Source: a virus
Lineage: Duplodnaviria; Heunggongvirae; Uroviricota; Caudoviricetes
IMG/VR virus record: IMGVR_UViG_2802429225_000001
Reading direction: 5' to 3' (one strand)
DNA length: 13,287 nt
Shown here: in pieces, positions 1-13,096 of the stretch
How the letters are laid out: each line of letters starts with the position of its first letter
Numbering within the stretch: the first letter of the stretch is position 1
Position numbers and translations under genes: made by a program
Notes under the pieces: generated by a model
Seen by the model: only the letters and a program-made list of their open reading frames with translations
Told to the model about the DNA's origin: nothing
Database searches by the model: none

Positions 1-489
1 TTCGTCCCGTATACCGCCATGCAGGACGATAGCGCCCCGACAGGCCAGCGCATCTGGGAAGAGTTACAGAGCGGCAAATGGGGAGAAATAACCCCGTTCA
101 CCGTCACGCCGGAACTTATCACCGCGGCGAAGGATGCCAAAAAGCGGGAAATCGAGGTGTGGCGCACAGAACAGGAGGCGCAGCCGTTCACGTTCGAATG
201 GAACGGTCGTAGCTGGAATGCTGGCCCCAGCTCACTGGCCCGTATCTATCCGGTGGTAATGGCATCAAAATCCGACACAGCGCGGGACGTTATGACATGG
301 GGTGATGCCGATAATCAGCAAGTGAAGATGTCGATGCCAGAGCTTGAGGAGCTGGCTACAGCTATGGCGCAGGCGCAGGTTAACCGCAATGATGAAATTT
401 ATCGACGTCAGCGACAGATGAAGGACGTGCTGGATGGCCTGAATAATCTTGCCGACATCCGCGCTTTTCAGACTGGAGAGTCAGAATGA
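1..489 (+). CDS. Phage tail-fibre-assembly-like protein, DUF4376-type C-terminal domain; reading frame is open to window position 1, so the 5' end probably lies outside the window (first in-window Met at 19)
   Basis: ORF 19..489 with no in-frame stop between 1 and 18 and no Shine-Dalgarno before Met19. Pattern WR..EA..FTFEWNG..W...W.DADN..V.M...RQRQMK matches my recollection of the DUF4376 signature. Stop overlaps next start (ATGA at 486-489). Confidence 0.5.
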   Translation, partial: FVPYTAMQDDSAPTGQRIWEELQSGKWGEITPFTVTPELITAAKDAKKREIEVWRTEQEAQPFTFEWNGRSWNAGPSSLARIYPVVMASKSDTARDVMTWGDADNQQVKMSMPELEELATAMAQAQVNRNDEIYRRQRQMKDVLDGLNNLADIRAFQTGESE

Positions 490-1199
490 AATGGGAAAAG
501 GCAATTCTGCGTCCGTCAGCCATGCACATTAAATGCTCTGTGGTTTGCCTTCATCCATGGTCAGAAAATACCGGAAACATCAAACCATCGGGGCGTTATC
601 TCAGCCCCGAAAATGCTGTATCTGCACTTTTACCCTATCTGAAAGAAAGCACAGAAAAAGACATTGTGGCGCTGTTATTTTGCACCCCTTCTGCTGGCGA
701 GTTTTTATCACTCGCCAGGCAATTTTCAGGCGCATTTCCGTTGCCGGAGGTGGGACGAATGTCCCGCATGATCTCCAGCCAGCTTTCACTGGCCATCAGC
801 AGAATGCAAATCCCCGCCAGACCGGCAACATCACTTCCGGAACCGATAATGCTGTCGACACAGACCACTCGAAGCATGTCGCTGGCGGCAACCATTGCAC
901 AGGCAGCCACTCCTGCCGCCACATCACCGGAAACATTGTCATCATCGCTGCATCAGTTCATGAATGCGAGAGATAAAGCCTTACAGGAAATCGCTGATCA
1001 GCAGGCCGCACTCCGGCAAAAATTTTGCCCGGTGTGGCGCTTTTGCTACAAGGGAGCTCTTAGCCAGGCTGCAGTGCTGATACAAAAAAACATCCCACAC
1101 CCCGAGTGGGTTTTTACAGCTGTGATGCTGTTCGTCGGCGATAATCTCTCATCACTAAGGGAAGCACTACATGACCCAGATGATTGTCCTTGCGCTTGA
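486..1199 (+). CDS. Hypothetical prophage protein (237 aa), function unknown
   Basis: Longest ORF in region; ATGA start/stop overlap with upstream gene and 29-nt overlap with downstream gene suggest a coupled operon. Rare-codon content is fairly high and the protein is S/T/A/P-rich, so the frame call is moderate. Confidence 0.45.
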   Translation: MKWEKAILRPSAMHIKCSVVCLHPWSENTGNIKPSGRYLSPENAVSALLPYLKESTEKDIVALLFCTPSAGEFLSLARQFSGAFPLPEVGRMSRMISSQLSLAISRMQIPARPATSLPEPIMLSTQTTRSMSLAATIAQAATPAATSPETLSSSLHQFMNARDKALQEIADQQAALRQKFCPVWRFCYKGALSQAAVLIQKNIPHPEWVFTAVMLFVGDNLSSLREALHDPDDCPCA

Positions 1200-1746
1200 C
1201 GGGGAAGCCATTCTGCTGCGCAACATCACCGTCAGCGCCACCATGCAACTACCGGACAAAGATATGTCCGGACAGTCAACCAGCACCACGAGCGCCCAGC
1301 AGGGAAACAAGGCTAAAGAGCTGCGCGTGTCGGGGGTTATTGATTTTAACGATGAAGCTATTCTGACCCGTATTTTTCAGCTTGCGGAGGCAACAGAAAG
1401 CAACGGTGCTAAAAAAACATATCGCATTGCTAACGCTACCGCGAAGGCAATCAATATGCGACAGGGGGTATTTTCTGGTGGCATTGATGCCACGGAACAA
1501 CAGGGAAAAATGCACTGGCAGGTCACCTTTACTCTCAGGGAAAAATTAAGCGTGCCAGAGAAAGCATCAGCACGTAGCGGTTCACAAAAAACCATCGCCA
1601 GACAGCAGACCCAGAATGGCAGCGAACAGGCACCAGACAAAGGCATGAATACGCAAAGTTCGTTCTGGAAAAAAATCAATGATGCCGTTGGCTCTGGTCT
1701 GGATGCTGTTGGCATTGGGAGCGTGAAAGAGGAAGGGAAAACATGA
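1171..1746 (+). CDS. Hypothetical prophage protein (191 aa); possibly a tail-associated protein
   Basis: ORF with AAGGGA Shine-Dalgarno-like sequence about 7 nt before ATG 1171; stop overlaps next start (ATGA at 1743-1746). No motif I can assign confidently. Confidence 0.5.
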   Translation: MTQMIVLALDGEAILLRNITVSATMQLPDKDMSGQSTSTTSAQQGNKAKELRVSGVIDFNDEAILTRIFQLAEATESNGAKKTYRIANATAKAINMRQGVFSGGIDATEQQGKMHWQVTFTLREKLSVPEKASARSGSQKTIARQQTQNGSEQAPDKGMNTQSSFWKKINDAVGSGLDAVGIGSVKEEGKT

Positions 1747-3440
1747 AATTGATACAACGCTGCATGATTAATGGCGAACAGGTGGAAATTGCCGATATAA
1801 ACCTTGTTCTTACCCTGAATGCTGCCGGTCGTGGCTTCATTTCTGTTAACAATCTGTCACCCGAACACAGCCTTGCCGGCGCAATGGTACAAATTGATCT
1901 CGGCCGTGACGGTGAAGCATGGCGCTATTTCTCCGGCTACATTGAGCGCGATCAACCTGCTGAAAATGGCTCACGTCGCCTTTTTATCCGTGAAGCAGCT
2001 GCTGTGCTGGATTTTGATTTCCCTTGCTCCATGCAACACCCGACGTTGCGGGGGGTACTCGATAATCTGGGCAAACAAAGCGGCATCGTTTTCATCACGC
2101 CAGATGCGGATTACGTCAGCATACCAACTCCCTACATCACCCACAGCGGCAGCGGAGCACAACTGCTCAGCCAACTGGGGCGAGCATTCAGTATCAGCGA
2201 TTACGTCTGGCATCCAATGCCGGACGGTTCTGTATTTGTGGGAAGCGCAGCTGATTCACGATTTGCCAGTATTACAATGCCGGATATTCCGCAACAGTAC
2301 ACACTCGGGCAAAGCGGCGGAAACAGCATCGACATCATGTTTATGGAAACTGTGCGACCGGGCGTGAACCTACCGGCCGGGCGCATTACCCGTGTAGCCC
2401 TCAACAACGAGAAAATGACCCTGACATGGGAGCGCCTTACCGCCACGGGTAGCCCTGTTTCCAAATCACCATTACGCAGACAAATGGAAACACAGTTCCC
2501 GGAACTGGCCAGCGGTACTCTTCATACCCGGCTGGCGCGCGTCATTGCCCCAACGGAATCCGTCACCCTGGGCGATGTAGCCGACAGCTTCCGCCCACGC
2601 TACGCCGTTGATGTGCAGTTGCTTGATGAGAACGGCAACGATAAAAACGATACACCTGTTTACCCGGCAGTACCCCTCCCCGTCCCCATGGCTGGCAGTG
2701 AGGCGGGATGTTTTGCCTACCCGCCGGCTGGCACCATCGTGGAAATATCCAACATTGAAGGACGACCGGATAAACCTGTCATCAGGCAAATCTTACCCGC
2801 GGGCCATAACCTGCCTGATGTAAAGCCCGGCGAACAGCTGCAGCAACAGCGCGCAGAAGTGTTTCAGCGCGTCACGACTGACGGAAGCTGGCACAGAGAA
2901 ACCGATCAGCAAATCAGGGAGCATTCAGCCAGGCGAACCATTAACAGCGATCAGGAAGAACGCACAACAACAACCAGAACAACAACAGTACAGGCAAACG
3001 ACATAACCAGCGTTCTGGGAACCAGCAAGCTGATGACAGGCCAGACAGAACACATTACTACTGGCCATTATGCGATCGCAGCCGGTGAGCATATCCAGAT
3101 GGTAGCGCAGGATTTGCTGACTAAACTCAAAGGGGCGACATCCACCATCGAACATAACCTCACCGAAAATGTGGGAGGCCGCAGAACATGCCGGGCGGAC
3201 GGCGGCCTGGAATTTACCGCCCCGACTGTATTTATCGGTCGCGGTGGCTCACGGGAAAAATCCGGACTTAATCTGCTGACGTTGTTGATTGATATTCTGG
3301 ATCTGGTTCAGTTGCTGGCCACACACACTGCAAACCATACCCATAGCAATACTGGCGCACCAACAAACAGCAGCGAACTTGCCACAGACGCCCAACAGGC
3401 TACGAGCCTGCGCGAAAAATACGGTGACCTTATCGCCTGA
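1743..3440 (+). CDS. Prophage structural-type protein (565 aa); possible baseplate hub (gpD/gp27/VgrG-like N-terminal region) with Thr-rich linker and His-cluster C-terminal region
   Basis: Long ORF, translationally coupled to upstream gene. N-terminal segment (AWRYFSGYIER ... LRGVLDNLGKQSGIV) resembles the conserved hub motif of gpD/VgrG proteins as I recall it; C-terminal part has ERTTTTRTTTV and HTANHTHSNTG (HxH-type cluster as in spike tips). Functional call is by-eye only. Confidence 0.6.
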   Translation: MKLIQRCMINGEQVEIADINLVLTLNAAGRGFISVNNLSPEHSLAGAMVQIDLGRDGEAWRYFSGYIERDQPAENGSRRLFIREAAAVLDFDFPCSMQHPTLRGVLDNLGKQSGIVFITPDADYVSIPTPYITHSGSGAQLLSQLGRAFSISDYVWHPMPDGSVFVGSAADSRFASITMPDIPQQYTLGQSGGNSIDIMFMETVRPGVNLPAGRITRVALNNEKMTLTWERLTATGSPVSKSPLRRQMETQFPELASGTLHTRLARVIAPTESVTLGDVADSFRPRYAVDVQLLDENGNDKNDTPVYPAVPLPVPMAGSEAGCFAYPPAGTIVEISNIEGRPDKPVIRQILPAGHNLPDVKPGEQLQQQRAEVFQRVTTDGSWHRETDQQIREHSARRTINSDQEERTTTTRTTTVQANDITSVLGTSKLMTGQTEHITTGHYAIAAGEHIQMVAQDLLTKLKGATSTIEHNLTENVGGRRTCRADGGLEFTAPTVFIGRGGSREKSGLNLLTLLIDILDLVQLLATHTANHTHSNTGAPTNSSELATDAQQATSLREKYGDLIA

Positions 3441-3479
3441 TCACCGGGCATAAAGCCCCCCATAAACGCCCCATCACGC

Positions 3480-3508
3480 AACGCACGGCTCCGGTCGTGC
3501 GTTTTCAT
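3480..3508 (+). terminator. Candidate intrinsic terminator after the 565-aa gene
   Basis: Stem ACGCACG (3481-3487) / CGTGCGT (3496-3502), 8-nt loop, followed by TTTTC; lies 40 nt after the stop at 3440. Confidence 0.4.
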
Positions 3509-3983
3509 ATCTGCCACCTGATTAATGCGTTCTGCGTGCCATTCCGGCGCTGTATGCGCACACCACGTAAACGGTGTGACGTAAAGCGTGAGGTGACGTA
3601 AACCGCGCTACCCCCTCCAACCCGCGGGTTTTGTGTCGAAACACTTTTTCAGTTTTCTGCCGTGCAAAAATGACCGCCAGCCCGCGCAGCAACTGAGGGA
3701 AAAGCGAAGATCTGAAATTTCACGTTTTGAAATTTTTTGCAGTTTTCAGAGAGGTTTTTACGATCGCACAAATGGCAGGGGCAATAAAACTGCATGATAT
3801 TAAAAGAGTTTTCATGCTTTACGTGGGACAAGACACGATCGCGAAAGGATCGCGTTAAACAACTCTCAAACAAAGAAGCCAGACGCAGCGCGGCCTGCGT
3901 AAAATCAAGAGCCAGAATTAAACTGAAAAAAGGATCAATACCACGCCTCGATCGCGCATGACGATCTATGCAGCAACATGACG

Positions 3984-4050
3984 AAAAAAAACCGGCGCGA
4001 ACGCCGGCGGAAGCATGTATCAAATGCGTGACTGAATAATGTCTGCGGTC
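3984..4050 (-). ncRNA. Candidate small RNA (about 67 nt) with its own promoter and intrinsic terminator, divergent from the hok-like promoter
   Basis: On the minus strand: -35 TTGAGG (4079-4084), 16-nt spacer, extended -10 TGaTATAAA (4057-4065), then about 67 nt ending in hairpin CCGGCG-UUCG-CGCCGG (3992-4007) followed by eight U (A-run 3984-3991 on plus strand). No convincing ORF or Shine-Dalgarno inside. Confidence 0.35.
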
Positions 4051-4088
4051 GGGAATTTTATATCAGAAGACTGACAGGCCTCAACGGA

Positions 4089-4118
4089 TTGAAACAAGGG
4101 AAAAAACCAGGCTAGAAT
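4089..4118 (+). promoter_or_regulatory. Candidate sigma70 promoter of the hok-like mRNA
   Basis: TTGAAA (4089-4094), 18-nt spacer, TAGAAT (4113-4118); predicted start near 4125, exactly where the 5' element complementary to the 3' end begins. Confidence 0.45.
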
Positions 4119-4168
4119 TCGCGCGGGTGCCTTTCGGCTGATGGCTGGAGGGAATACCTGAAGGCCGG

Positions 4169-4351
4169 ATGTGGAAAGGCCCCGGAAAACATTTTTGTTT
4201 AACCGAGGCCCTAACCGTCTACCTAGCAAGTGATAGGTTAGCGCCTCCCCGAAAAAGGAGCAAGCGCTATGTCGCAAAAATCGCTTACAGCCATCACGTT
4301 CTGTGTGACGGCAATCCTCATCATCTGGATGCTGCACGGCTCGCTGTGTGA
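4169..4351 (+). CDS. mok-like overlapping reading frame (60 aa) upstream of and overlapping the hok-like toxin gene
   Basis: ORF starts at ATG 4169 (GAAGG 4160-4164 upstream), is in a different frame from the toxin ORF and ends inside it, as mok does in hok/sok loci. Protein shows no recognisable domain, so the role is by position only. Confidence 0.3.
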   Translation: MWKGPGKHFCLTEALTVYLASDRLAPPRKRSKRYVAKIAYSHHVLCDGNPHHLDAARLAV

Positions 4352-4409
4352 AATACGGATGAGCTTCTGGGGAGCGGAGTTTGCGGCGTTCTTACAGTGT
4401 AAGCAGTAA
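4269..4409 (+). CDS. hok: Hok/Gef-family type I toxin (46 aa small membrane peptide)
   Basis: ATG 4269 preceded by AAGGAG (4255-4260, 8-nt spacer). Translation MSQKSLTAITFCVTAILIIWMLHGSLCEIRMSFWGAEFAAFLQCKQ has a hydrophobic N-terminal helix plus the SLCEIR ... E.AAF motif shared with Hok (R1) and HokA. Below the size cut-off of the supplied ORF track. Confidence 0.7.
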   Translation: MSQKSLTAITFCVTAILIIWMLHGSLCEIRMSFWGAEFAAFLQCKQ

Positions 4410-4495
4410 GGAAACCGCGACGGGGGAGTAATCCCCCGTCAATCGGTTGCTAAGGTTGGTCGAAACGGCACCCTATCTCACAGACATGAACAACA

Positions 4496-4530
4496 AACCC
4501 GCAGCGTAAAAACTGCGGGTTTTCTTTTTG
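4496..4530 (+). terminator. Intrinsic terminator of the hok-like transcript
   Basis: Stem AACCCGCAG (4496-4504) / CTGCGGGTT (4513-4521), loop CGTAAAAA, followed by TTTCTTTTTGTTG. Confidence 0.6.
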
Positions 4531-4579
4531 TTGCCCTCACAAATGAGGGTGACACTATTCGTAAGCAATAGGCATGACA

Positions 4580-4627
4580 GATCGATGCAATAAATCCGAT
4601 CGATAAAAACGATCGGTTTGTTATCAT
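4580..4627 (+). promoter_or_regulatory. Regulatory region of the com-methyltransferase operon: three clustered GATC sites plus candidate extended -10 promoter
   Basis: GATC at 4580-4583, 4598-4601 and 4611-4614 (two within ATCGAT); TGtTATCAT extended -10 at 4619-4627 with no good -35 (the -35 position coincides with a GATC). Resembles the layout upstream of Mu mom. Confidence 0.4.
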
Positions 4628-4661
4628 ATCGGCAGCAGTAACCACACAAGAGGTGCCGCAA

Positions 4662-4859
4662 ATGACGCAAAATGTACGATGCAAAAATTGCAACAAACTA
4701 CTTGCCCGCGCCTCATTTCACTACATTGAAATAAAATGTCCGCGCTGCAAAACACTTAACCAGATAACGAGAGCCATTGAGCACCCCACACGCATGAGGA
4801 GTTATGACCGTGGGGATCGCAACCCAGCATCAACCAGTACATACACCGGAACACACTAA
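4662..4859 (+). CDS. com: Com-like zinc-finger translational regulator (65 aa from ATG 4662; the ORF track starts 3 codons earlier at GTG 4653)
   Basis: AAGAGGTG Shine-Dalgarno (4648-4655) 6 nt before ATG 4662. Protein MTQNVRCKNCNKLLARASFHYIEIKCPRCK ... EHPT carries the CxxC ... CxxC motif and surrounding residues of phage Mu Com. Confidence 0.8.
   Translation: MTQNVRCKNCNKLLARASFHYIEIKCPRCKTLNQITRAIEHPTRMRSYDRGDRNPASTSTYTGTH
4784..4815 (+). promoter_or_regulatory. Stem-loop sequestering the methyltransferase ribosome-binding site and start codon (candidate Com-responsive translational operator)
   Basis: CCCCAC (4784-4789) pairs with GTGGGG (4810-4815); the 20-nt loop holds GAGGAG (4796-4801) and ATG 4804. 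Lies inside the 3' end of com. Confidence 0.4.
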
Positions 4860-5610
4860 GATTTACCAGATTGACAATGCCACGCTCTGTCGTGGAAATG
4901 CACTGGAAATATTGCCGCTGATTGAGCCAGAAAGCATTGATGCCTTAATCACTGACCCGCCTTACAGTTCGGGTGCGACACACAAGGCCGGACGCACCAA
5001 CCAGGGCAGTCATGCAAAATATCTGAACGGCGAGAACCTTCACCGCTTTGATGGGTTCGCGGGTGAGAACATGGACGCCCGTTCGTGGGCTTACTGGACA
5101 CAATTATGGATGGCACAGGCACTACGTGCAGTCAGGTCGGGCGGTTATGCCCTGGTATTTACTGACTGGCGACAACTGCCTGCTTTAACCGATGCGTTTC
5201 AGGCCAGCGGTTTTACATGGCGTGGAATCATTGCGTGGAACAAAGGAAAGGGGTCACGAACACCCCATACGGGGTATTTCCGGCATCAGTGCGAATACAT
5301 CGTCTGGGGCAGCAAAGGCCATTTAGGTAAATCGCCTTCGGGTCCGTTCGACGGCTGCATGACGTTCCCGGTTATCCCGTCAAAGAAAATGCACCCGACC
5401 GGAAAACCAGAAGAACTAATGGCAGAGCTGGTCAGAACTGCGAATAGTGGCGGAACAGTCCTTGATCCTTTTATGGGGTCAGGGACAACGGGTGTGGCTG
5501 CACTGAAAGCAGGGCGAAAATTTATTGGTATAGAAACCAGTGATCATTATTTTGAGGTAGCGGCGCAGCGGCTTCGGGGGACTATTACCACAACCATTTC
5601 GACTACATAA
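4804..5610 (+). CDS. DNA amino-methyltransferase, beta class (N6-adenine or N4-cytosine; N6_N4_Mtase type), 268 aa
   Basis: Motif IV DPPY (LITDPPYSS) precedes HPTGKP and motif I DPFMGSGTT, the beta-class order (IV before I). Start overlaps the com 3' end out of frame (ATG 4804; alternative GTG 4810). Confidence 0.85.
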   Translation: MTVGIATQHQPVHTPEHTKIYQIDNATLCRGNALEILPLIEPESIDALITDPPYSSGATHKAGRTNQGSHAKYLNGENLHRFDGFAGENMDARSWAYWTQLWMAQALRAVRSGGYALVFTDWRQLPALTDAFQASGFTWRGIIAWNKGKGSRTPHTGYFRHQCEYIVWGSKGHLGKSPSGPFDGCMTFPVIPSKKMHPTGKPEELMAELVRTANSGGTVLDPFMGSGTTGVAALKAGRKFIGIETSDHYFEVAAQRLRGTITTTISTT

Positions 5611-5640
5611 GACAAAGCCCGCATTTTTTGCGGGCTTGTC
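5611..5640 (+). terminator. Hairpin immediately after the methyltransferase stop (candidate terminator; T-run is in the loop, not 3' of the stem)
   Basis: GACAAAGCCCGCA (5611-5623) / TGCGGGCTTGTC (5629-5640) with TTTTT loop; starts 1 nt after the TAA at 5608-5610. Confidence 0.35.
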
Positions 5641-5711
5641 TATCCTTACTGATGTGGACAGTTTGTGGATGCTTATAAGAAATAAGCTAATAGAAACAAT
5701 CTGTTAGATTT

Positions 5712-5760: not shown

Positions 5761-6156
<396 letters not shown>

Positions 6157-6336
6157 TCAAAATGTGTGATGGAAATCTCATAATTTTGTCACTTTTTGTC
6201 AACGAAGTTTTTTTGTGAGAAATCGCAGGAAGAAGTGTTTTTTTACTTGAGGAATGTCTCAAAGCGAGCCATATTTGATGAGATCGATCGCGACTAAATC
6301 GCTTCAGTTACACGCGTTACAGAATAAAAAAACGGC

Positions 6337-6349
6337 AGCTCAAGGGCTG
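6337..6349. repeat. Target-site duplication copy (left) of the IS4 insertion: AGCTCAAGGGCTG
   Basis: Identical 13-mer recurs at 7777-7789 on the other side of the IS; with the preceding base it is 13/14 identical to 7776-7789. Confidence 0.6.
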
Positions 6350-7775
6350 TAATGCCAGTCAGTTAAGCAACTGACTGGCTCTTTTTCGGGGCTGTGGGGG
6401 ATTTCCAGGGTCTCTCCTTTACCACTCTCGGGAAGGCCCTTTCCCTTCTTGTCGGTAATTTCACTAGTTGTCCCATACTTGCAAGATCGCGCATCAGCTC
6501 CGGTATACGTCCCGGTGAAGCGCCCTGCAATGTCATCAGCATTCTCATCACCATTCCGCATGATTCTGAGAAACTCAGTTGATTCGGCCAGTAACCTTTC
6601 AGATGTTCTGCCATTTTAATCATCTGATATCTCACCAGATTATAAGCCAGTAAGACACCCCATAGCTCTTGCTCCACAAGCTCCGGCTTTTTACTTCTCA
6701 GCGTCAGCCTGCTCAGTTGCATCGTCTGTTTTATCTCCCTGTATCCCAGTTCGATTTCCCAGCGATGACTGTACAGATCCGCCATTTCTCCTCCGGGGAA
6801 GCGCATGGCGTCCGTCATCGACGTCAGCAGATGGCAGACTTTTCCTTTGCGCGTCACGGTCAGCAGGCGGGCTGTCACCTCATTTCCCAGTCCCGGCCAC
6901 TTTTTTCGTGCCTGCGGGCTGGTTTTCAGCTTCACCAGATGATCGCCTTTACCCAGTTTTCTGATCTCTTCATATTGCGCTCCCTTTCTGAGAGGGATCA
7001 TCCAGTGGCGGTGTTCTCCCGCCTGGCTCCAGGCATTTAACAGTCCCAGTGAGTAATAACCTTTATCCATTAACGTCAGGGTGTTATCGCCGGTTTGTTC
7101 TATAAGTTGCTCAGCAAGCTCATTTTCGCTGTTCTTCATCGTGCCGAAAGCTGCAGCCGTCAGCAGATGGCTGGTCAGTTCCATCTGGCAGACCATTTTG
7201 ACCTGCGGGTAGAGCGCCGGGTTCCCGGCATGTGTCTGGCGGGGGAAGGCTGCATCGTTCTCTGGTGTATCCGGTGTGCGCCAGAACACACCATCGATGG
7301 CCAGCAGGGTCAGGCCGCACCAGTGCGGATGCGGCGTGGCGTTATGCCAGAGCTGCGCTGTTTTCGTGAACACGCGGCGGACAGCCTCACTTCCCAGGCG
7401 CTGGCGGGCCTGAATAACGGCACTGGGGGCAACGAAGGGGCGATTGCCCGGTAGCATGATGTCCAGGCGATTCACAATCTGGTGAAGAGGTTCTTTACGC
7501 TCAAGCGCCATGCCAACAATACACCAGACCATCATTTCGAGGGGAAGACGGCGCTTGCGTAGCGTTACAGTACCTGATTCGGCAAGGCAACGAGAGATGA
7601 GTTCGGGGTCGAGGTAATCCCCCAGAGAAGTCAGTGGGTTACGCAGAGAATCGTAACGGGATACCAAATCAAGTGCCTGTCCAATGAGCATAAAAAAATC
7701 CGGAAACGAGTGAGCGTTTCCGGATTCTTACACAGCCACTGGATCGGTCAACTGATCCTTAACTGATCGGCATTA
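6350..7775 (-). mobile_element. IS4 insertion sequence, complete copy (1426 bp) with 18-bp imperfect terminal inverted repeats
   Basis: Ends TAATGCCAGTCAGTTAAG (6350-6367) and, reverse-complemented, TAATGCCGATCAGTTAAG (7758-7775), 16/18 match. Length 1426 bp and a single 442-aa transposase ORF match IS4 as I know it; flanked by the 13-bp direct repeat. Confidence 0.9.
6363..7691 (-). CDS. insG: IS4 transposase (DDE family, InsG-type), 442 aa
   Basis: Full-length ORF inside the IS. Start ATG at 7689-7691 is immediately preceded on the minus strand by an 11-bp stem (7698-7708 / 7715-7725) and a U-run, a typical IS read-through barrier. Confidence 0.9.
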
Positions 7776-7776
7776 G

Positions 7777-7789
7777 AGCTCAAGGGCTG
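7777..7789. repeat. Target-site duplication copy (right) of the IS4 insertion: AGCTCAAGGGCTG
   Basis: Same 13-mer as 6337-6349; one extra G (7776) lies between the IS end and this copy. Confidence 0.6.
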
Positions 7790-7812
7790 CCGTTTTGTGT
7801 TTCAGAATTCTG

Positions 7813-8550
7813 TTATGTATTGCTGCTGTTTGCGGCGATGATTTTCGCGACTTTTTCAGCTTGTGCATTCATCTGCATCTGACGGTAAGCATTTTCCATT
7901 AGTGGCAGAGCATCACGTGTAGCCTGAGTATCCGGGAAATCGCGCAGCATGCCTTCTACACGGTTAACGACAGCAACCCATGCGCCGCGTTCTGTATAGT
8001 ACTCGGCAACAGAGTATTCATATTTCGCCAGGCGATCTTTCAGGAACACCAGACGTTTGGTGGCATCGGTGGTGTACTGACTGTTCGGATAGCCGCGAAC
8101 TAATTTGGAAAAGTCACTAAACGCAGCTCGAGCATGTTGAGGATCGCGATCGCTACGGTCAACGCCAAAGAATCCTTGTAGCGCACTGTCATCCAGTGCC
8201 ATATTGGTCAGGCCACGCATATACATGACATAATCGATATTCGGATGGGTCGGGTTCAGGCGAATAAAACGATCGATGGCAGCCTGTGCTAACGGCAGAT
8301 CGGCGTTTTTATAATAGGCGTAGATGAGATCCAACTGCACCTGCTGTGAATACGGACCAAACGGATAGCGATTATCTAACGCTTCCAGTTGCGTTATTGC
8401 CTGTCTCCAGTTACCGTCCTGCAGCTTTTGTTGTGCAGTCGCGTAAATTTCATTTGGCGGATTATCAGGTACTTTTTCCTTTGAACCCGAGCAACCCGCC
8501 AAAAACAGGCTTAATGTGGCGGCTGCCACCAGATATTTCATGCGCGTCAT
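7813..8550 (-). CDS. bamD: Outer-membrane protein assembly factor BamD (YfiO) lipoprotein, 245 aa
   Basis: [26 protein letters not shown] ... with lipobox LAGC; recognised as E. coli BamD. Confidence 0.95.
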
Positions 8551-10393: not shown

Positions 10394-10455
10394 CCTAAAG
10401 AATCAAGACGATCCGGTACGCGTGATTTTCTTTTCACATTAATCTGGTCAATAAC

Positions 10456-10483
10456 CTTGAATAATTGAGGGATGACCTCATTT
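10456..10483 (+). promoter_or_regulatory. Candidate sigma32 (heat-shock) promoter of clpB
   Basis: CTTGAAT (10456-10462), 13-nt spacer, CCTCATTT (10476-10483), matching the sigma32 consensus CTTGAAA / CCCCATnT; about 40 nt upstream of the clpB start. Confidence 0.55.
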
Positions 10484-10522
10484 AATCTCCAGTAGCAACT
10501 TTGATCCGTTATGGGAGGAGTT

Positions 10523-13096
10523 ATGCGTCTGGATCGTCTTACTAACAAATTCCAGCTTGCTCTTGCCGATGCCCAATCACTTGCACTCGGGCACGACAAC
10601 CAATTCATCGAACCACTTCATTTAATGAGCGCCCTGCTGAATCAGGAAGGGGGTTCGGTTAGTCCTTTATTAACATCCGCTGGCATTAATGCTGGCCAAT
10701 TGCGCACAGATATCAATCAGGCATTAAATCGTTTACCGCAGGTTGAAGGTACAGGGGGCGATGTCCAGCCTTCACAGGATCTGGTGCGCGTTCTTAATCT
10801 TTGCGACAAGCTGGCGCAAAAACGTGGTGATAACTTTATCTCGTCAGAACTGTTTGTTCTGGCGGCACTTGAGTCTCGCGGCACGCTGGCCGACATCCTG
10901 AAAGCAGCAGGGGCGACCACCGCCAACATTACTCAAGCGATTGAACAAATGCGTGGAGGTGAAAGCGTGAATGATCAAGGAGCCGAAGACCAACGTCAGG
11001 CTTTGAAAAAATATACCATTGACCTTACCGAACGTGCCGAACAAGGTAAACTCGATCCGGTAATTGGTCGTGATGAAGAAATTCGTCGTACCATTCAGGT
11101 ACTGCAACGCCGTACTAAAAATAACCCGGTACTGATCGGTGAACCTGGTGTCGGTAAAACCGCCATCGTTGAAGGTTTGGCGCAGCGTATTATCAATGGC
11201 GAAGTACCTGAAGGGCTGAAAGGCCGCCGCGTACTGGCGCTGGATATGGGCGCGCTGGTGGCTGGGGCGAAATATCGTGGTGAGTTTGAAGAACGTCTGA
11301 AAGGCGTGCTGAACGATCTGTCGAAACAGGAAGGCAACGTCATTCTGTTTATCGATGAGCTGCACACCATGGTGGGCGCAGGTAAAGCCGATGGCGCAAT
11401 GGACGCCGGGAATATGCTGAAACCGGCACTGGCCCGTGGTGAACTGCACTGCGTGGGCGCGACCACCCTTGATGAATATCGCCAGTACATTGAAAAAGAT
11501 GCGGCGCTGGAACGTCGTTTCCAGAAAGTGTTTGTTGCCGAGCCAACGGTGGAAGACACCATTGCTATTCTGCGTGGCCTGAAAGAACGTTACGAGCTGC
11601 ACCACCATGTGCAAATTACTGACCCGGCAATTGTTGCAGCGGCGACGTTGTCTCATCGCTACATTGCTGACCGTCAGTTGCCAGATAAAGCCATCGACCT
11701 GATCGATGAAGCGGCATCCAGTATCCGTATGCAGATTGACTCAAAACCGGAAGAGCTTGACCGACTCGATCGTCGAATTATCCAGCTTAAGCTGGAACAA
11801 CAGGCGTTAATGAAAGAGTCTGATGAAGCCAGTAAAAAACGTCTGGATATGCTCAATGAAGAACTGAGTGACAAAGAACGCCAGTACTCTGAGTTAGAAG
11901 AGGAGTGGAAAGCAGAGAAAGCGTCACTCTCTGGCACCCAGACCATTAAAGCCGAACTGGAACAGGCGAAAATCGCCATTGAACAGGCGCGCCGTGTAGG
12001 TGATCTGGCGCGGATGTCCGAACTGCAATACGGCAAAATTCCGGAGCTCGAAAAACAACTGGAAGCGGCTACGCAGCTCGAAGGCAAAACCATGCGTCTG
12101 TTGCGTAATAAAGTGACTGACGCAGAAATTGCTGAAGTGTTGGCGCGTTGGACGGGCATTCCTGTTTCTCGCATGATGGAAAGTGAGCGCGAAAAACTGC
12201 TGCGTATGGAGCAAGAACTGCACCATCGTGTTATTGGCCAAAACGAAGCCGTTGATGCGGTATCTAACGCCATTCGTCGTAGCCGTGCGGGGCTTGCGGA
12301 TCCTAATCGCCCGATTGGTTCGTTCTTGTTCCTCGGTCCAACGGGTGTAGGTAAAACCGAACTCTGTAAGGCGCTGGCGAATTTTATGTTCGACAGTGAC
12401 GAGGCGATGGTTCGTATCGATATGTCCGAGTTTATGGAGAAACACTCGGTGTCTCGTCTGGTTGGTGCACCTCCGGGATATGTGGGTTATGAAGAAGGTG
12501 GCTACCTGACTGAAGCGGTGCGTCGTCGTCCTTATTCCGTCATTCTGCTGGATGAAGTGGAAAAAGCGCATCCGGATGTATTCAACATTCTGTTGCAGGT
12601 TCTGGATGACGGACGTCTGACTGATGGGCAGGGGAGAACGGTCGATTTCCGTAATACGGTGGTCATTATGACCTCTAACCTCGGCTCCGATCTGATCCAG
12701 GAACGTTTCGGTGAACTGGATTATGCGCGCATGAAAGAGCTGGTGCTCGGCGTGGTTAGCCATAACTTCCGTCCGGAATTCATAAACCGTATTGATGAAG
12801 TTGTGGTCTTCCACCCGTTGGGTGAACAACATATCGCTTCGATTGCCCAGATCCAGTTGAAACGTCTGTACAAACGTCTGGAAGAACGTGGTTATGAAAT
12901 CCACATTTCTGACGAGGCACTGAAACTGCTGAGCGAGAATGGTTACGATCCGGTTTATGGTGCACGTCCTCTGAAACGTGCTATCCAGCAACAGATCGAA
13001 AACCCGCTGGCGCAGCAAATACTGTCTGGTGAATTGGTTCCTGGCAAAGTCATTCGCCTGGAAGTTAATGAAGACCGCATTGTCGCCGTCCAGTAA
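10523..13096 (+). CDS. clpB: Chaperone/disaggregase ClpB (Hsp100 AAA+ ATPase), 857 aa
   Basis: Two AAA+ modules (Walker A GEPGVGKT and GPTGVGKT) and the middle coiled-coil. I place the start at ATG 10523, which gives the 857-aa length I know for ClpB, with GGGAGGAG 10513-10520 as Shine-Dalgarno, rather than the track's ATG 10511. Internal GTG (Val149) at 10967-10969 matches the known ClpB-80 alternative start. Confidence 0.97.

Follow-up and report, generated by a model that had tools for sequence, protein, structure and literature searches.

An intact IS4 in a terminator-like hairpin between bamD and raiA, a recurrent IS4 target in Escherichia coli and relatives

Results

An intact IS4 lies in the bamD-raiA spacer

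The window, by which we mean the whole stretch of 13,287 nucleotides that was analysed, carries bamD and raiA and, in the spacer between them, an intact insertion sequence of 1426 bp (6350-7775) that starts with TAATGCC and ends with GGCATTA (Table 1). The inverted repeats at its ends are 18 bp long and imperfect, matching at 16 of 18 positions, and its single open reading frame encodes a transposase with the Pfam domains Nterm_IS4 (PF13006) and DDE_Tnp_1 (PF01609) that is identical to the E. coli IS4 transposase at 437 of 442 residues (98.9%). Over 1426 bp, the element shares 98.7% nucleotide identity with the IS4 that RefSeq annotates in E. coli 32-4. Given this near-identity, its length, the single DDE/Nterm_IS4 reading frame, the terminal repeats, the target-site duplication and the arms of its target, the element is an ordinary intact IS4 (IS4 family, IS4 subgroup). 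It resembles the IS4 of K-12 (insG; ISfinder IS4 family, IS4 subgroup) in its 1426 bp, its 16/18 repeats and its single 442-aa DDE transposase; unlike that element, it represents another sequence type, which differs from the E. coli copies by 18-19 nt; over its first ~135 nt, the window copy exactly matches copies in a Scandinavium metagenome-assembled genome. The bamD and rluD genes of the window are at most 94.5% identical to those of any of 5426 complete E. coli genomes, and the host is therefore not E. coli proper.

Table 1 Features of the bamD-raiA region in the window
Feature	Position	Strand	Remarks
raiA	5761..6102	(-)	ATG 247 nt downstream of IS4 right repeat
Left flank, outer part	6326..6335	(-)	A7 (6326-6332) and CGG (6333-6335); raiA side
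Left target-site duplication copy	6336..6349		CAGCTCAAGGGCTG; 14 bp; inner stem and loop of hairpin
IS4	6350..7775	(-)	Transposase direction same as bamD and raiA
IS4 right inverted repeat (IRR)	6350..6367		16/18 match to left repeat
IRR-end hairpin with TCTTTTT	6354..6386	(+)	11-bp stem, 4-nt loop; terminator scan
IS4 transposase reading frame	6363..7691	(-)	Intact, 442 aa, single reading frame
IS4 5' hairpin with U7	7692..7727	(-)	Candidate substitute bamD terminator and transposase insulator; folding, conservation
Predicted transposase promoter	7724..7751	(-)	-35 TTGACC, 16-nt spacer, TG-extended -10 AAGAAT; consensus scan only
IS4 left inverted repeat (IRL)	7758..7775		Faces bamD
Right target-site duplication copy	7776..7789		GAGCTCAAGGGCTG; first base C to G
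Right flank, outer part	7790..7796	(-)	CCG (7790-7792) and TTTT (7793-7796); bamD side
bamD	7813..8550	(-)	Stop codon 7815-7813; IS4 end 37 nt away

Deleting IS4 together with one copy of the repeat in silico gives AAAAAAACGGCAGCTCAAGGGCTGCCGTTTT, that is, A7, the arms CGGCAGC and GCTGCCG around the loop TCAAGG, and TTTT. An earlier note, made from the window's letters alone, had placed an IS4 in a palindrome between bamD and raiA, about 250 bp from raiA, and had proposed this same reconstructed hairpin with its A-run and T-run. Both the location and the palindrome were borne out: the transposase is intact, the element ends 247 nt ahead of the raiA ATG, and the rebuilt sequence matches the bamD-raiA spacer of K-12 MG1655 exactly, with 6326-6335 contiguous with 7790-7796 in this IS-free allele. 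The note had also suggested a comparison with IS-free alleles; besides K-12, a contiguous, uninterrupted spacer is present in 5006 of the 5426 complete E. coli genomes, while a look-up for the window's own species by exact BamD match returned only the source genome and its Logan assembly, neither of them an IS-free allele. Annotation should not treat an IS4 in this position as a disruption of bamD or raiA.

The interrupted palindrome has the architecture of a bamD terminator

The native hairpin lies on the bamD sense strand, where its stem begins 20 nt past the stop codon, and consists of a 7-bp GC-rich stem, a 6-nt loop and U7. The reconstructed sequence folds at -17.3 kcal/mol (z = -5.6; 0 of 200 shuffles as good; hairpin alone -12.3 kcal/mol). 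From this GC-rich stem, short loop, adjoining U-tract and position after the stop codon we infer that it is the intrinsic terminator of bamD. The stem is kept and the loop varies, with one G missing in E. coli GN02050 and the sequence CATTG in Kosakonia, a pattern expected of a structure under selection. We also considered whether the hairpin is a REP element and rejected this, as the sequence occurs in a single copy, is specific to this locus and has A and T runs.

That bamD ends elsewhere, through Rho-dependent termination or read-through into raiA, and that the palindrome is only a landing site for IS4, seems to us improbable; the insertion would then alter little for bamD and nothing would be substituted. 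This reading is in line with the Term-seq lists of Adams et al. 2021, which have no call at the 3' end expected for the K-12 bamD hairpin (~2736926-2736930, plus strand; the nearest 3' ends are 2736152 and 2737542), and with the supplements of the Term-seq paper PMC12207403 (TERMITe), which likewise list no bamD 3' end at the hairpin. Low expression of bamD or the threshold for calling ends may explain the missing call in Adams et al. 2021, and a literature search for work on the bamD terminator found nothing. The canonical architecture of the hairpin so close to the stop codon and the conservation of its stem while the loop varies argue against such a reading and for a terminator.

In the minus-strand sense, the insertion leaves AAAA and the CGG of the native 5' stem arm on the bamD side (7790-7796) and the CCG of the 3' stem arm with the U7 tract on the raiA side (6326-6335). 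The stem was thus separated from its U-tract on the bamD side, as had been proposed: the remnant facing bamD lacks the U-tract and is unfolded (half-site -1.2 kcal/mol; z = -0.5 in context). On the raiA side, the leftover half-site, read in the transposase sense, folds into a stem of no more than 4 bp (-3.6 kcal/mol), with CCG-U7 after it.

The duplication is 14 bp with one substitution

Target duplications of IS4 are generally given as 11-13 bp, about one helical turn. That in the window measures 14 bp and has a single mismatch (C to G at 7776); it thus also corresponds to about one helical turn and exceeds the quoted range by one base, a difference from the usual description of IS4 alongside a host outside E. 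coli proper. The earlier note had read it as 13 bp plus an extra G at 7776. This reading needs correction: the first base of the repeat is substituted, and the E. coli alleles have C there. In E. coli 32-4, a 1426-bp IS4 sits at the same position and in the same orientation between perfect 14-bp copies of CAGCTCAAGGGCTG. The G is not the error of one assembler, since a second, independent assembly of the same reads also has it.

We find it very improbable that the G is instead a base of the element (a 1427-bp variant) or an untemplated addition beside a 13-bp duplication. Such a duplication would agree with the 11-13 bp usually quoted for IS4 and with the 11-13 bp of other copies analysed here, but the same-site E. 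coli alleles, with their C, give a perfect 14-bp repeat around a 1426-bp element. In E. coli GN02050, moreover, where IS4 has the opposite orientation and the loop lacks 1 nt, the repeat measures 13 bp and 3 bp again remain outside it at either side, from which it follows that the cut positions track the stem arms. The rebuilt targets of IS4 copies fold into hairpins, and their duplications measure 11-14 bp.

IS4 prefers terminator-like hairpins

As seen in 51 independent flanks, the insertions of IS4 and its relatives lie in an A-run followed by a GC-rich palindrome, with A at -18 in 43 and G at -1 in 42, a pattern that by sequence is terminator-like. AAA occurs at -24..-13 in 85% of 41 unique flanks and at 16% of random positions, and AAA together with a palindrome of at least 4 bp in 41% of the 41 flanks as compared with 0.4% of random positions. 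The search of genome contigs with the IS4 left-end pattern gave 44 loci, the source genome not being among them. Relatives with 68-91% transposase identity, from Pantoea, Pectobacterium, Photorhabdus and Leminorella, are mostly found in terminator-like hairpins at gene ends. A consensus of AAA-N20-TTT was reportedly given by Mayaux et al. in 1984, with IS4 in the pheS,T attenuator, and Mahillon and Chandler are said to have stated it likewise in 1998. The target in the window fits this consensus as AAA-CGGCAGCTCAAGGGCTGCCG-TTT. Specificity for target arms has been confirmed (PMC2266710), and De Palmenaer et al. count in support of the target rule; published work on IS activity in E. coli and Shigella contained nothing on IS4 target choice. 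A terminator-like hairpin, as read from these flanks, is the preferred kind of target of IS4.

The bamD-raiA hairpin is a recurrent IS4 site

IS4 occupies the same hairpin in 337 E. coli genomes in the orientation of the window and in 70 in the opposite orientation, counts that refer to genomes and not to independent insertion events. Opposite-orientation copies are present in Shigella flexneri and E. coli ECMA0423, and in Kosakonia oryziphila an IS4 lies 245 nt upstream of raiA in the orthologous hairpin AAAAAAACGGCAGCCATTGGCTG. The bamD-raiA hairpin is therefore a recurrent hot spot for IS4 in E. coli and relatives. Annotations of this insertion already exist for hundreds of E. coli genomes in RefSeq, and it is a textbook case of known biology. 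What the earlier note had presented as a special event is standard IS4 target choice at a repeatedly hit site, and the hairpin within the element is a built-in, conserved part of it.

The window copy and the E. coli copies at this position very probably go back to separate insertions. A single ancient event, inherited or moved by recombination, would account for the identical position, orientation and 14-bp duplication of the window and the same-orientation E. coli insertions, and yet we judge it quite unlikely: the E. coli copies at this site are 0-1 nt from a K-12-type IS4 at another locus, whereas the window copy is 18-19 nt from them, the opposite-orientation and Kosakonia insertions show that the site is hit repeatedly, and E. 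coli ETEC4077 has the neighbouring prophage but an empty spacer.

IS4 carries conserved hairpins at both ends

Between the IS4 end facing bamD and the transposase start lies a second hairpin on the minus strand, with a stem formed by 7698-7708 and 7715-7725 around the 6-nt loop CUCACU and followed by U7 (7698-7692) and, directly thereafter, the transposase ATG at 7691. The 11-bp stem and U-run that had been described at 7698-7725 are thus where they were said to be, and the stem can be extended to 12 bp. The hairpin folds at -21.8 kcal/mol (z = -6.3; hairpin alone -17.2 kcal/mol) and, with its GC-containing stem, short loop and adjoining U-tract, 7692-7727 has the sequence features of an intrinsic terminator. 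It was not listed by the terminator scan, apparently because the stem extension absorbed the U-run into A-U pairs, and was found by direct folding instead.

The 5' hairpin is present in elements with 68-99% transposase identity, and its retention among relatives between the IS end and the transposase start is what would be expected of an insulator. Across eight variants, 97.9% of cells are paired and two pairs show compensatory changes, and sliding the partners lowers the pairing to at most 65%; the covariation is modest, as 8 of the 12 pairs never vary. At the other end, the IRR-end hairpin (-17.5 kcal/mol), followed by UCUUUUU and likewise conserved in relatives, is terminator-like for transcripts that come into the element from raiA.

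It is plausible that the IS4 5' hairpin replaces the bamD terminator. An alternative is that its role is mainly translational, hiding the ribosome-binding site and start codon, or that it is a DNA feature of the IS end, and that it terminates poorly; bamD read-through would then cross IS4 and reach raiA. The GGA and the transposase ATG do lie in or right after the 3' arm, IS10 and IS50 block outside activation by RNA structure rather than by termination, and the far end of IS4 offers no good terminator in the transposase sense, as the right-end hairpin has no U-run on that strand and the leftover half-site pairs over only 4 bp. We nevertheless consider this alternative unlikely, if less so than those discussed above, because a 12-bp stem immediately followed by seven U is a strong signature of an intrinsic terminator and U7 is kept in the eight aligned variants except Leminorella (U6); moreover, the two roles are not exclusive.

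The predicted transposase promoter is a bare consensus match of a kind no commoner in the region than in shuffled sequence. Its -10 (7729-7724) overlaps the foot of the 5' hairpin and would put the transcription start inside the 5' arm, and the TGTAAGAAT block of the region is invariant among IS4 relatives.

Discussion

Altogether, our observations on the insertion, its target, its recurrence and the conservation of the IS4 hairpins fit an explanation that we hold with good confidence, in which IS4 landed in its preferred terminator-like hairpin at a recurrent site and its own hairpins act as replacement terminators. In this model, IS4 would have transposed into the GC-rich palindrome that starts 20 nt past the bamD stop codon between an A-run and a T-run, through staggered cuts placed symmetrically 3 bp inside each stem arm, as a result of which the central 14 bp were duplicated; one copy would later have mutated from C to G at 7776. 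The insertion would take the 3' stem arm and the U-tract from bamD, whose transcripts would run 37 nt to the end of IS4 and ~50 nt further to the 12-bp hairpin with U7, where most would terminate, lengthening the bamD 3' UTR from ~47 nt to ~121 nt. The 5' hairpin most likely serves above all to keep outside transcription from driving the transposase and to mask the weak GGA ribosome-binding site. Transcription from the IS4 promoter is predicted to start inside the 5' arm of the hairpin, and the element's own mRNA would thereby escape it. Transcripts arriving from the opposite side would be blocked likewise by the mirror hairpin and U-run at that end.

A precedent for such an arrangement is IS200, whose left-end terminator "protects against impinging transcription" and sits, as the hairpin does in IS4, on the transposase sense strand in the stretch that separates the IS end from the transposase start, with RNA structure covering the ribosome-binding site (PMC4513863). 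IS200 is an unrelated HUH/Y1 element in which the terminator and the stem that hides the Shine-Dalgarno sequence are two separate hairpins, whereas in IS4 a single hairpin is predicted to serve both roles and a second inward-facing hairpin is found at the other end. IS4 also resembles the "mobile attenuators" of Naville and Gautheret 2010 (PMC2965389), IS-borne terminators that act on incoming host transcription; in that work, 5' terminators upstream of transposases are themselves described as intrinsic IS elements, blocking expression once the IS has landed in a transcribed region, and the examples named are ISBma2, the IS3 group and ISL3. At bamD, IS4 also destroys the host terminator, and the effect would therefore be replacement rather than a new attenuator. 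Like the REP-targeting IS1397, ISKpn1, ISPpu9 and ISRm22, IS4 spares genes by landing in intergenic hairpins; all copies of ISRm22, an IS4-family element, are in REP elements (PMC1525189). Unlike those of such REP-homing elements, the IS4 targets in our analysis are not repeated REP sequences; each is a unique, terminator-like hairpin that has A and T runs.

We tentatively speculate, as a possibility to which we would not yet give even weight, that IS4 and its close relatives are terminator-homing elements that recognize the arms of a hairpin, let the arms set the cuts and bring inward-facing terminators at both ends. Group IIC introns insert after intrinsic terminators. If the arms, and not a constant stagger, dictate where the cuts fall, this would explain why duplications of 11-14 bp track loop length. 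If this is true, each insertion, whichever its orientation, would replace a host terminator with one carried by the IS at almost no cost to the host, which would explain why IS4 is tolerated beside the essential bamD in ~7.5% of complete E. coli genomes. The locus teaches little that is new and is of modest value as a clean natural test case: a single terminator with IS-free, both-orientation and loop-length alleles could be used to measure whether hairpins carried by the IS take over from a host terminator and how the cuts of IS4 are placed relative to the palindrome arms.

Insertion of IS4 into the bamD hairpin

IS4 has inserted into the terminator-like palindrome that follows bamD. The left flank ends in ...AAAAAAA CGG CAGCTCAAGGGCTG and the right flank starts with GAGCTCAAGGGCTG CCG TTTT; joined with one copy of the repeat, they give AAAAAAACGGCAGCTCAAGGGCTGCCGTTTT, an exact match to the sequence between bamD and raiA in E. 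coli K-12 MG1655, in agreement with the earlier note, which had placed IS4 inside this hairpin. IS-free alleles do carry the hairpin: K-12 has it, and 5006 of 5426 E. coli genomes match the reconstructed 400-nt empty site without a break. In the bamD sense, the native hairpin reads CGGCAGC-CCUUGA-GCUGCCG followed by U7, with the stem beginning 20 nt past the stop codon, and folds at -12.3 kcal/mol alone and at -17.3 kcal/mol with the A/U extension (z = -5.6). In the one Term-seq dataset searched (lists of Adams et al. 2021), no 3' end is called at the K-12 hairpin, which neither supports nor refutes termination there. The distance to raiA, put at about 250 bp, is 247 nt. The insertion is confirmed, and sequence evidence, as far as it reaches, bears out its interpretation; the finding is ordinary in that a known element occupies a known type of target, at a site filled in hundreds of annotated genomes.

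Features of the bamD-raiA region
Feature	Position	Strand	Description
bamD	8550..7813	-	First in the minus-strand order bamD, IS4, raiA
IS4	6350-7775		Exactly 1426 bp, between bamD and raiA
raiA	6102..5761	-	After IS4 in minus-strand order
IS4 transposase ORF	7691..6363		442 aa, intact; domains Nterm_IS4 and DDE_Tnp_1
Predicted IS4 promoter, -35 TTGACC	7751-7746	-	Consensus match, just upstream of the 5' hairpin
Predicted IS4 promoter, TG-extended -10 AAGAAT	7729-7724	-	Consensus match

The terminal repeats of the element (TAATGCC...) agree at 16 of 18 positions, and its sequence shares 98.7% identity with the annotated IS4 of E. coli 32-4. Because the short-read contig that makes up the whole window (PTSR01000050.1, 13,287 bp, assembly GCA_002965345.1) crosses IS4 into unique sequence on either side, it suggests that this is the sole IS4 copy in its genome, sitting in the bamD terminator. 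The core genes of the window are Escherichia-like, yet none of 5426 complete E. coli genomes exceeds 94.5% identity to its bamD and rluD; by this divergence, the host probably belongs to an Escherichia lineage other than E. coli. A same-species IS-free allele was found neither by exact BamD look-up nor among these genomes.

The duplication had been described as 13 bp with an extra G at 7776. The G, which is also present in an independent assembly of the same reads, is a substitution: E. coli 32-4, with IS4 at the same position and orientation, has a perfect 14-bp repeat (CAGCTCAAGGGCTG) from which the window differs in a single base, the first of the right copy (G instead of C), and the duplication is therefore 14 bp with one substitution. 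E. coli GN02050, whose hairpin loop lacks one G, has a duplication of 13 bp, and again 3 bp of either stem arm (CGG, CCG) remain outside it; the cuts thus follow the palindrome arms.

Possible exchange of terminators

Once IS4 is in place, the 5' arm and the loop stay with bamD, together with a few 3'-arm bases. This remnant is essentially unstructured (-1.2 kcal/mol; -8.0 in context, z = -0.5) and lacks a U-tract, as the proposed parting of stem and U-tract implied, and bamD transcripts should therefore run into IS4 through its left repeat. There, 50 nt inside the element, they would meet AAUCCGGAAACG-CUCACU-CGUUUCCGGAUU, then U7 and the transposase AUG, a candidate terminator. This 5' hairpin, present at 7698-7725 as claimed, folds at -17.2 kcal/mol alone and at -21.8 kcal/mol in context (z = -6.3). 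Termination at this point would lengthen the bamD 3' UTR from ~47 to ~121 nt.

The 5' hairpin is kept in all IS4 variants recovered and also in the relatives. Pairing is preserved by a C-G to U-A change in Pectobacterium and Photorhabdus asymbiotica and by a G-C to U-A change in P. khanii, and Pantoea relatives have shorter loops. In an alignment of eight sequences, 97.9% of cells pair, falling to at most 65% when partner columns are slid by 1-3; compensatory changes occur in 2 of 12 pairs, and because eight pairs never vary the covariation evidence is modest. Judged by this conservation, the hairpin is a built-in part of IS4. The RefSeq start of the E. coli IS4 transposase is a TTG inside the hairpin, six codons before the ATG (4508-4510 in the 32-4 locus); the matching codon in the window is TCG (7707-7709), and the start is therefore the ATG at 7691. 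Through the same change, G instead of A at 7708, the top of the stem has a G-C pair in place of G-U.

The TGTAAGAAT block is invariant in IS4 relatives. Transcription starting ~7 nt past the predicted -10 would begin inside the 5' arm of the hairpin, and we therefore infer that the hairpin would form in read-through RNA but be missing from the mRNA of IS4 itself. The left end (7741-7768) also has three GATC (Dam) sites in its first 35 nt, one in the inverted repeat and one directly abutting the predicted -35, resembling IS10 and IS50, which are under Dam control. The proposed role of the 5' hairpin shares its logic with the left-end terminator of IS200, which "protects against impinging transcription" (PMC4513863), and fits the general class of insertion sequence 5' terminators (PMC2965389).

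At the right end, the repeat forms an 11-bp plus-strand hairpin (6354-6379; -17.5 kcal/mol) followed by UCUUUUU. This hairpin is also conserved in IS4 relatives and lacks a U-run on the transposase sense strand. In the half-site left on the raiA side, a stem of just 4 bp precedes CCG-U7 (-3.6 kcal/mol), and some transposase read-through towards raiA may occur; judged by position, the core promoter of raiA is probably well downstream of where IS4 inserted.

Recurrence at the same site

The bamD-raiA hairpin is an IS4 hot spot. Complete E. coli genomes carry IS4 here in the window orientation in 337 cases and in the opposite orientation in 70, together ~7.5% (genomes, not independent events); in the latter 70, bamD transcripts would meet the right-end hairpin. 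The opposite orientation also occurs in one Shigella flexneri genome and in E. coli ECMA0423, and in Kosakonia oryziphila the orthologous hairpin AAAAAAACGGCAGCCATTGGCTG holds an IS4 end, 245 nt before the raiA ortholog (88% amino acid identity). At the bamD-raiA site, the E. coli copies are 0-1 nt from a K-12-type IS4 at another locus and 18-19 nt from the window copy, which over its first ~135 nt shows no difference from the copies in a Scandinavium metagenome-assembled genome. E. coli ETEC4077, which has the neighbouring prophage in common with the window, has an empty spacer. By these distances, the window insertion is most simply an event independent of the E. coli copies.

In two loci, L018 (Shigella flexneri SFBU1023) and L034, the IS4 flanks form no duplication; in the former, the bamD-raiA hairpin lies on one side and unrelated sequence on the other. 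This mismatch suggests that recombination between IS4 copies has rearranged these loci.

Target choice

A scan for the left end of IS4, with each species represented by one genome, yielded 41 unique flanks, which we compared with random positions in the same loci. AAA at -24..-13 was found in 85% (random, 16%), a palindrome of at least 4 bp at the flank end in 44% (3%) and both in 41% (0.4%). With relatives added (51 flanks), A peaks at -18 (43/51), C predominates at -14..-9, and G stands at -4 in 39 and at -1 in 42. These statistics agree with the target consensus AAA-N20-TTT that Mayaux and colleagues reportedly described in 1984, and which the bamD site fits exactly. Targets rebuilt from complete copies are mostly hairpins with A and T runs, with duplications of 11-14 bp, and relatives with 68-91% transposase identity (Pantoea, Pectobacterium, Photorhabdus, Leminorella) are for the most part found in hairpins of this kind.

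At least seven of ten relatives' copies lie just past the end of a co-directional gene that precedes the IS left end. In three of the ten (L053, L054 and L059), a gene past the right end is predicted on the other strand, converging on it. This arrangement may be an orientation bias, in a sample too small to judge. We regard it as a possible, somewhat doubtful generalization that elements of the IS4 type target terminators and bring with them, at either end, a terminator that faces inward; if true, insertion exchanges one terminator for another.

Other features of the window

Positions 1-5711 are a prophage end with tail-fibre genes, a TM2-domain protein, a Com zinc-ribbon regulator and a Mom-like DNA methyltransferase (4804-5610). 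It adjoins the raiA/RaiZ terminator, with similarity to K-12 ending directly after GCGCGTTTTTTGT, and pheL and pheA are absent from the window. The same prophage end and junction occur in ETEC4077, next to its IS-free spacer. The sole Rfam match at gathering score in the window is the sRNA RyfD (RF02768, 125 bits) at 10404-10542 (+), just upstream of clpB.
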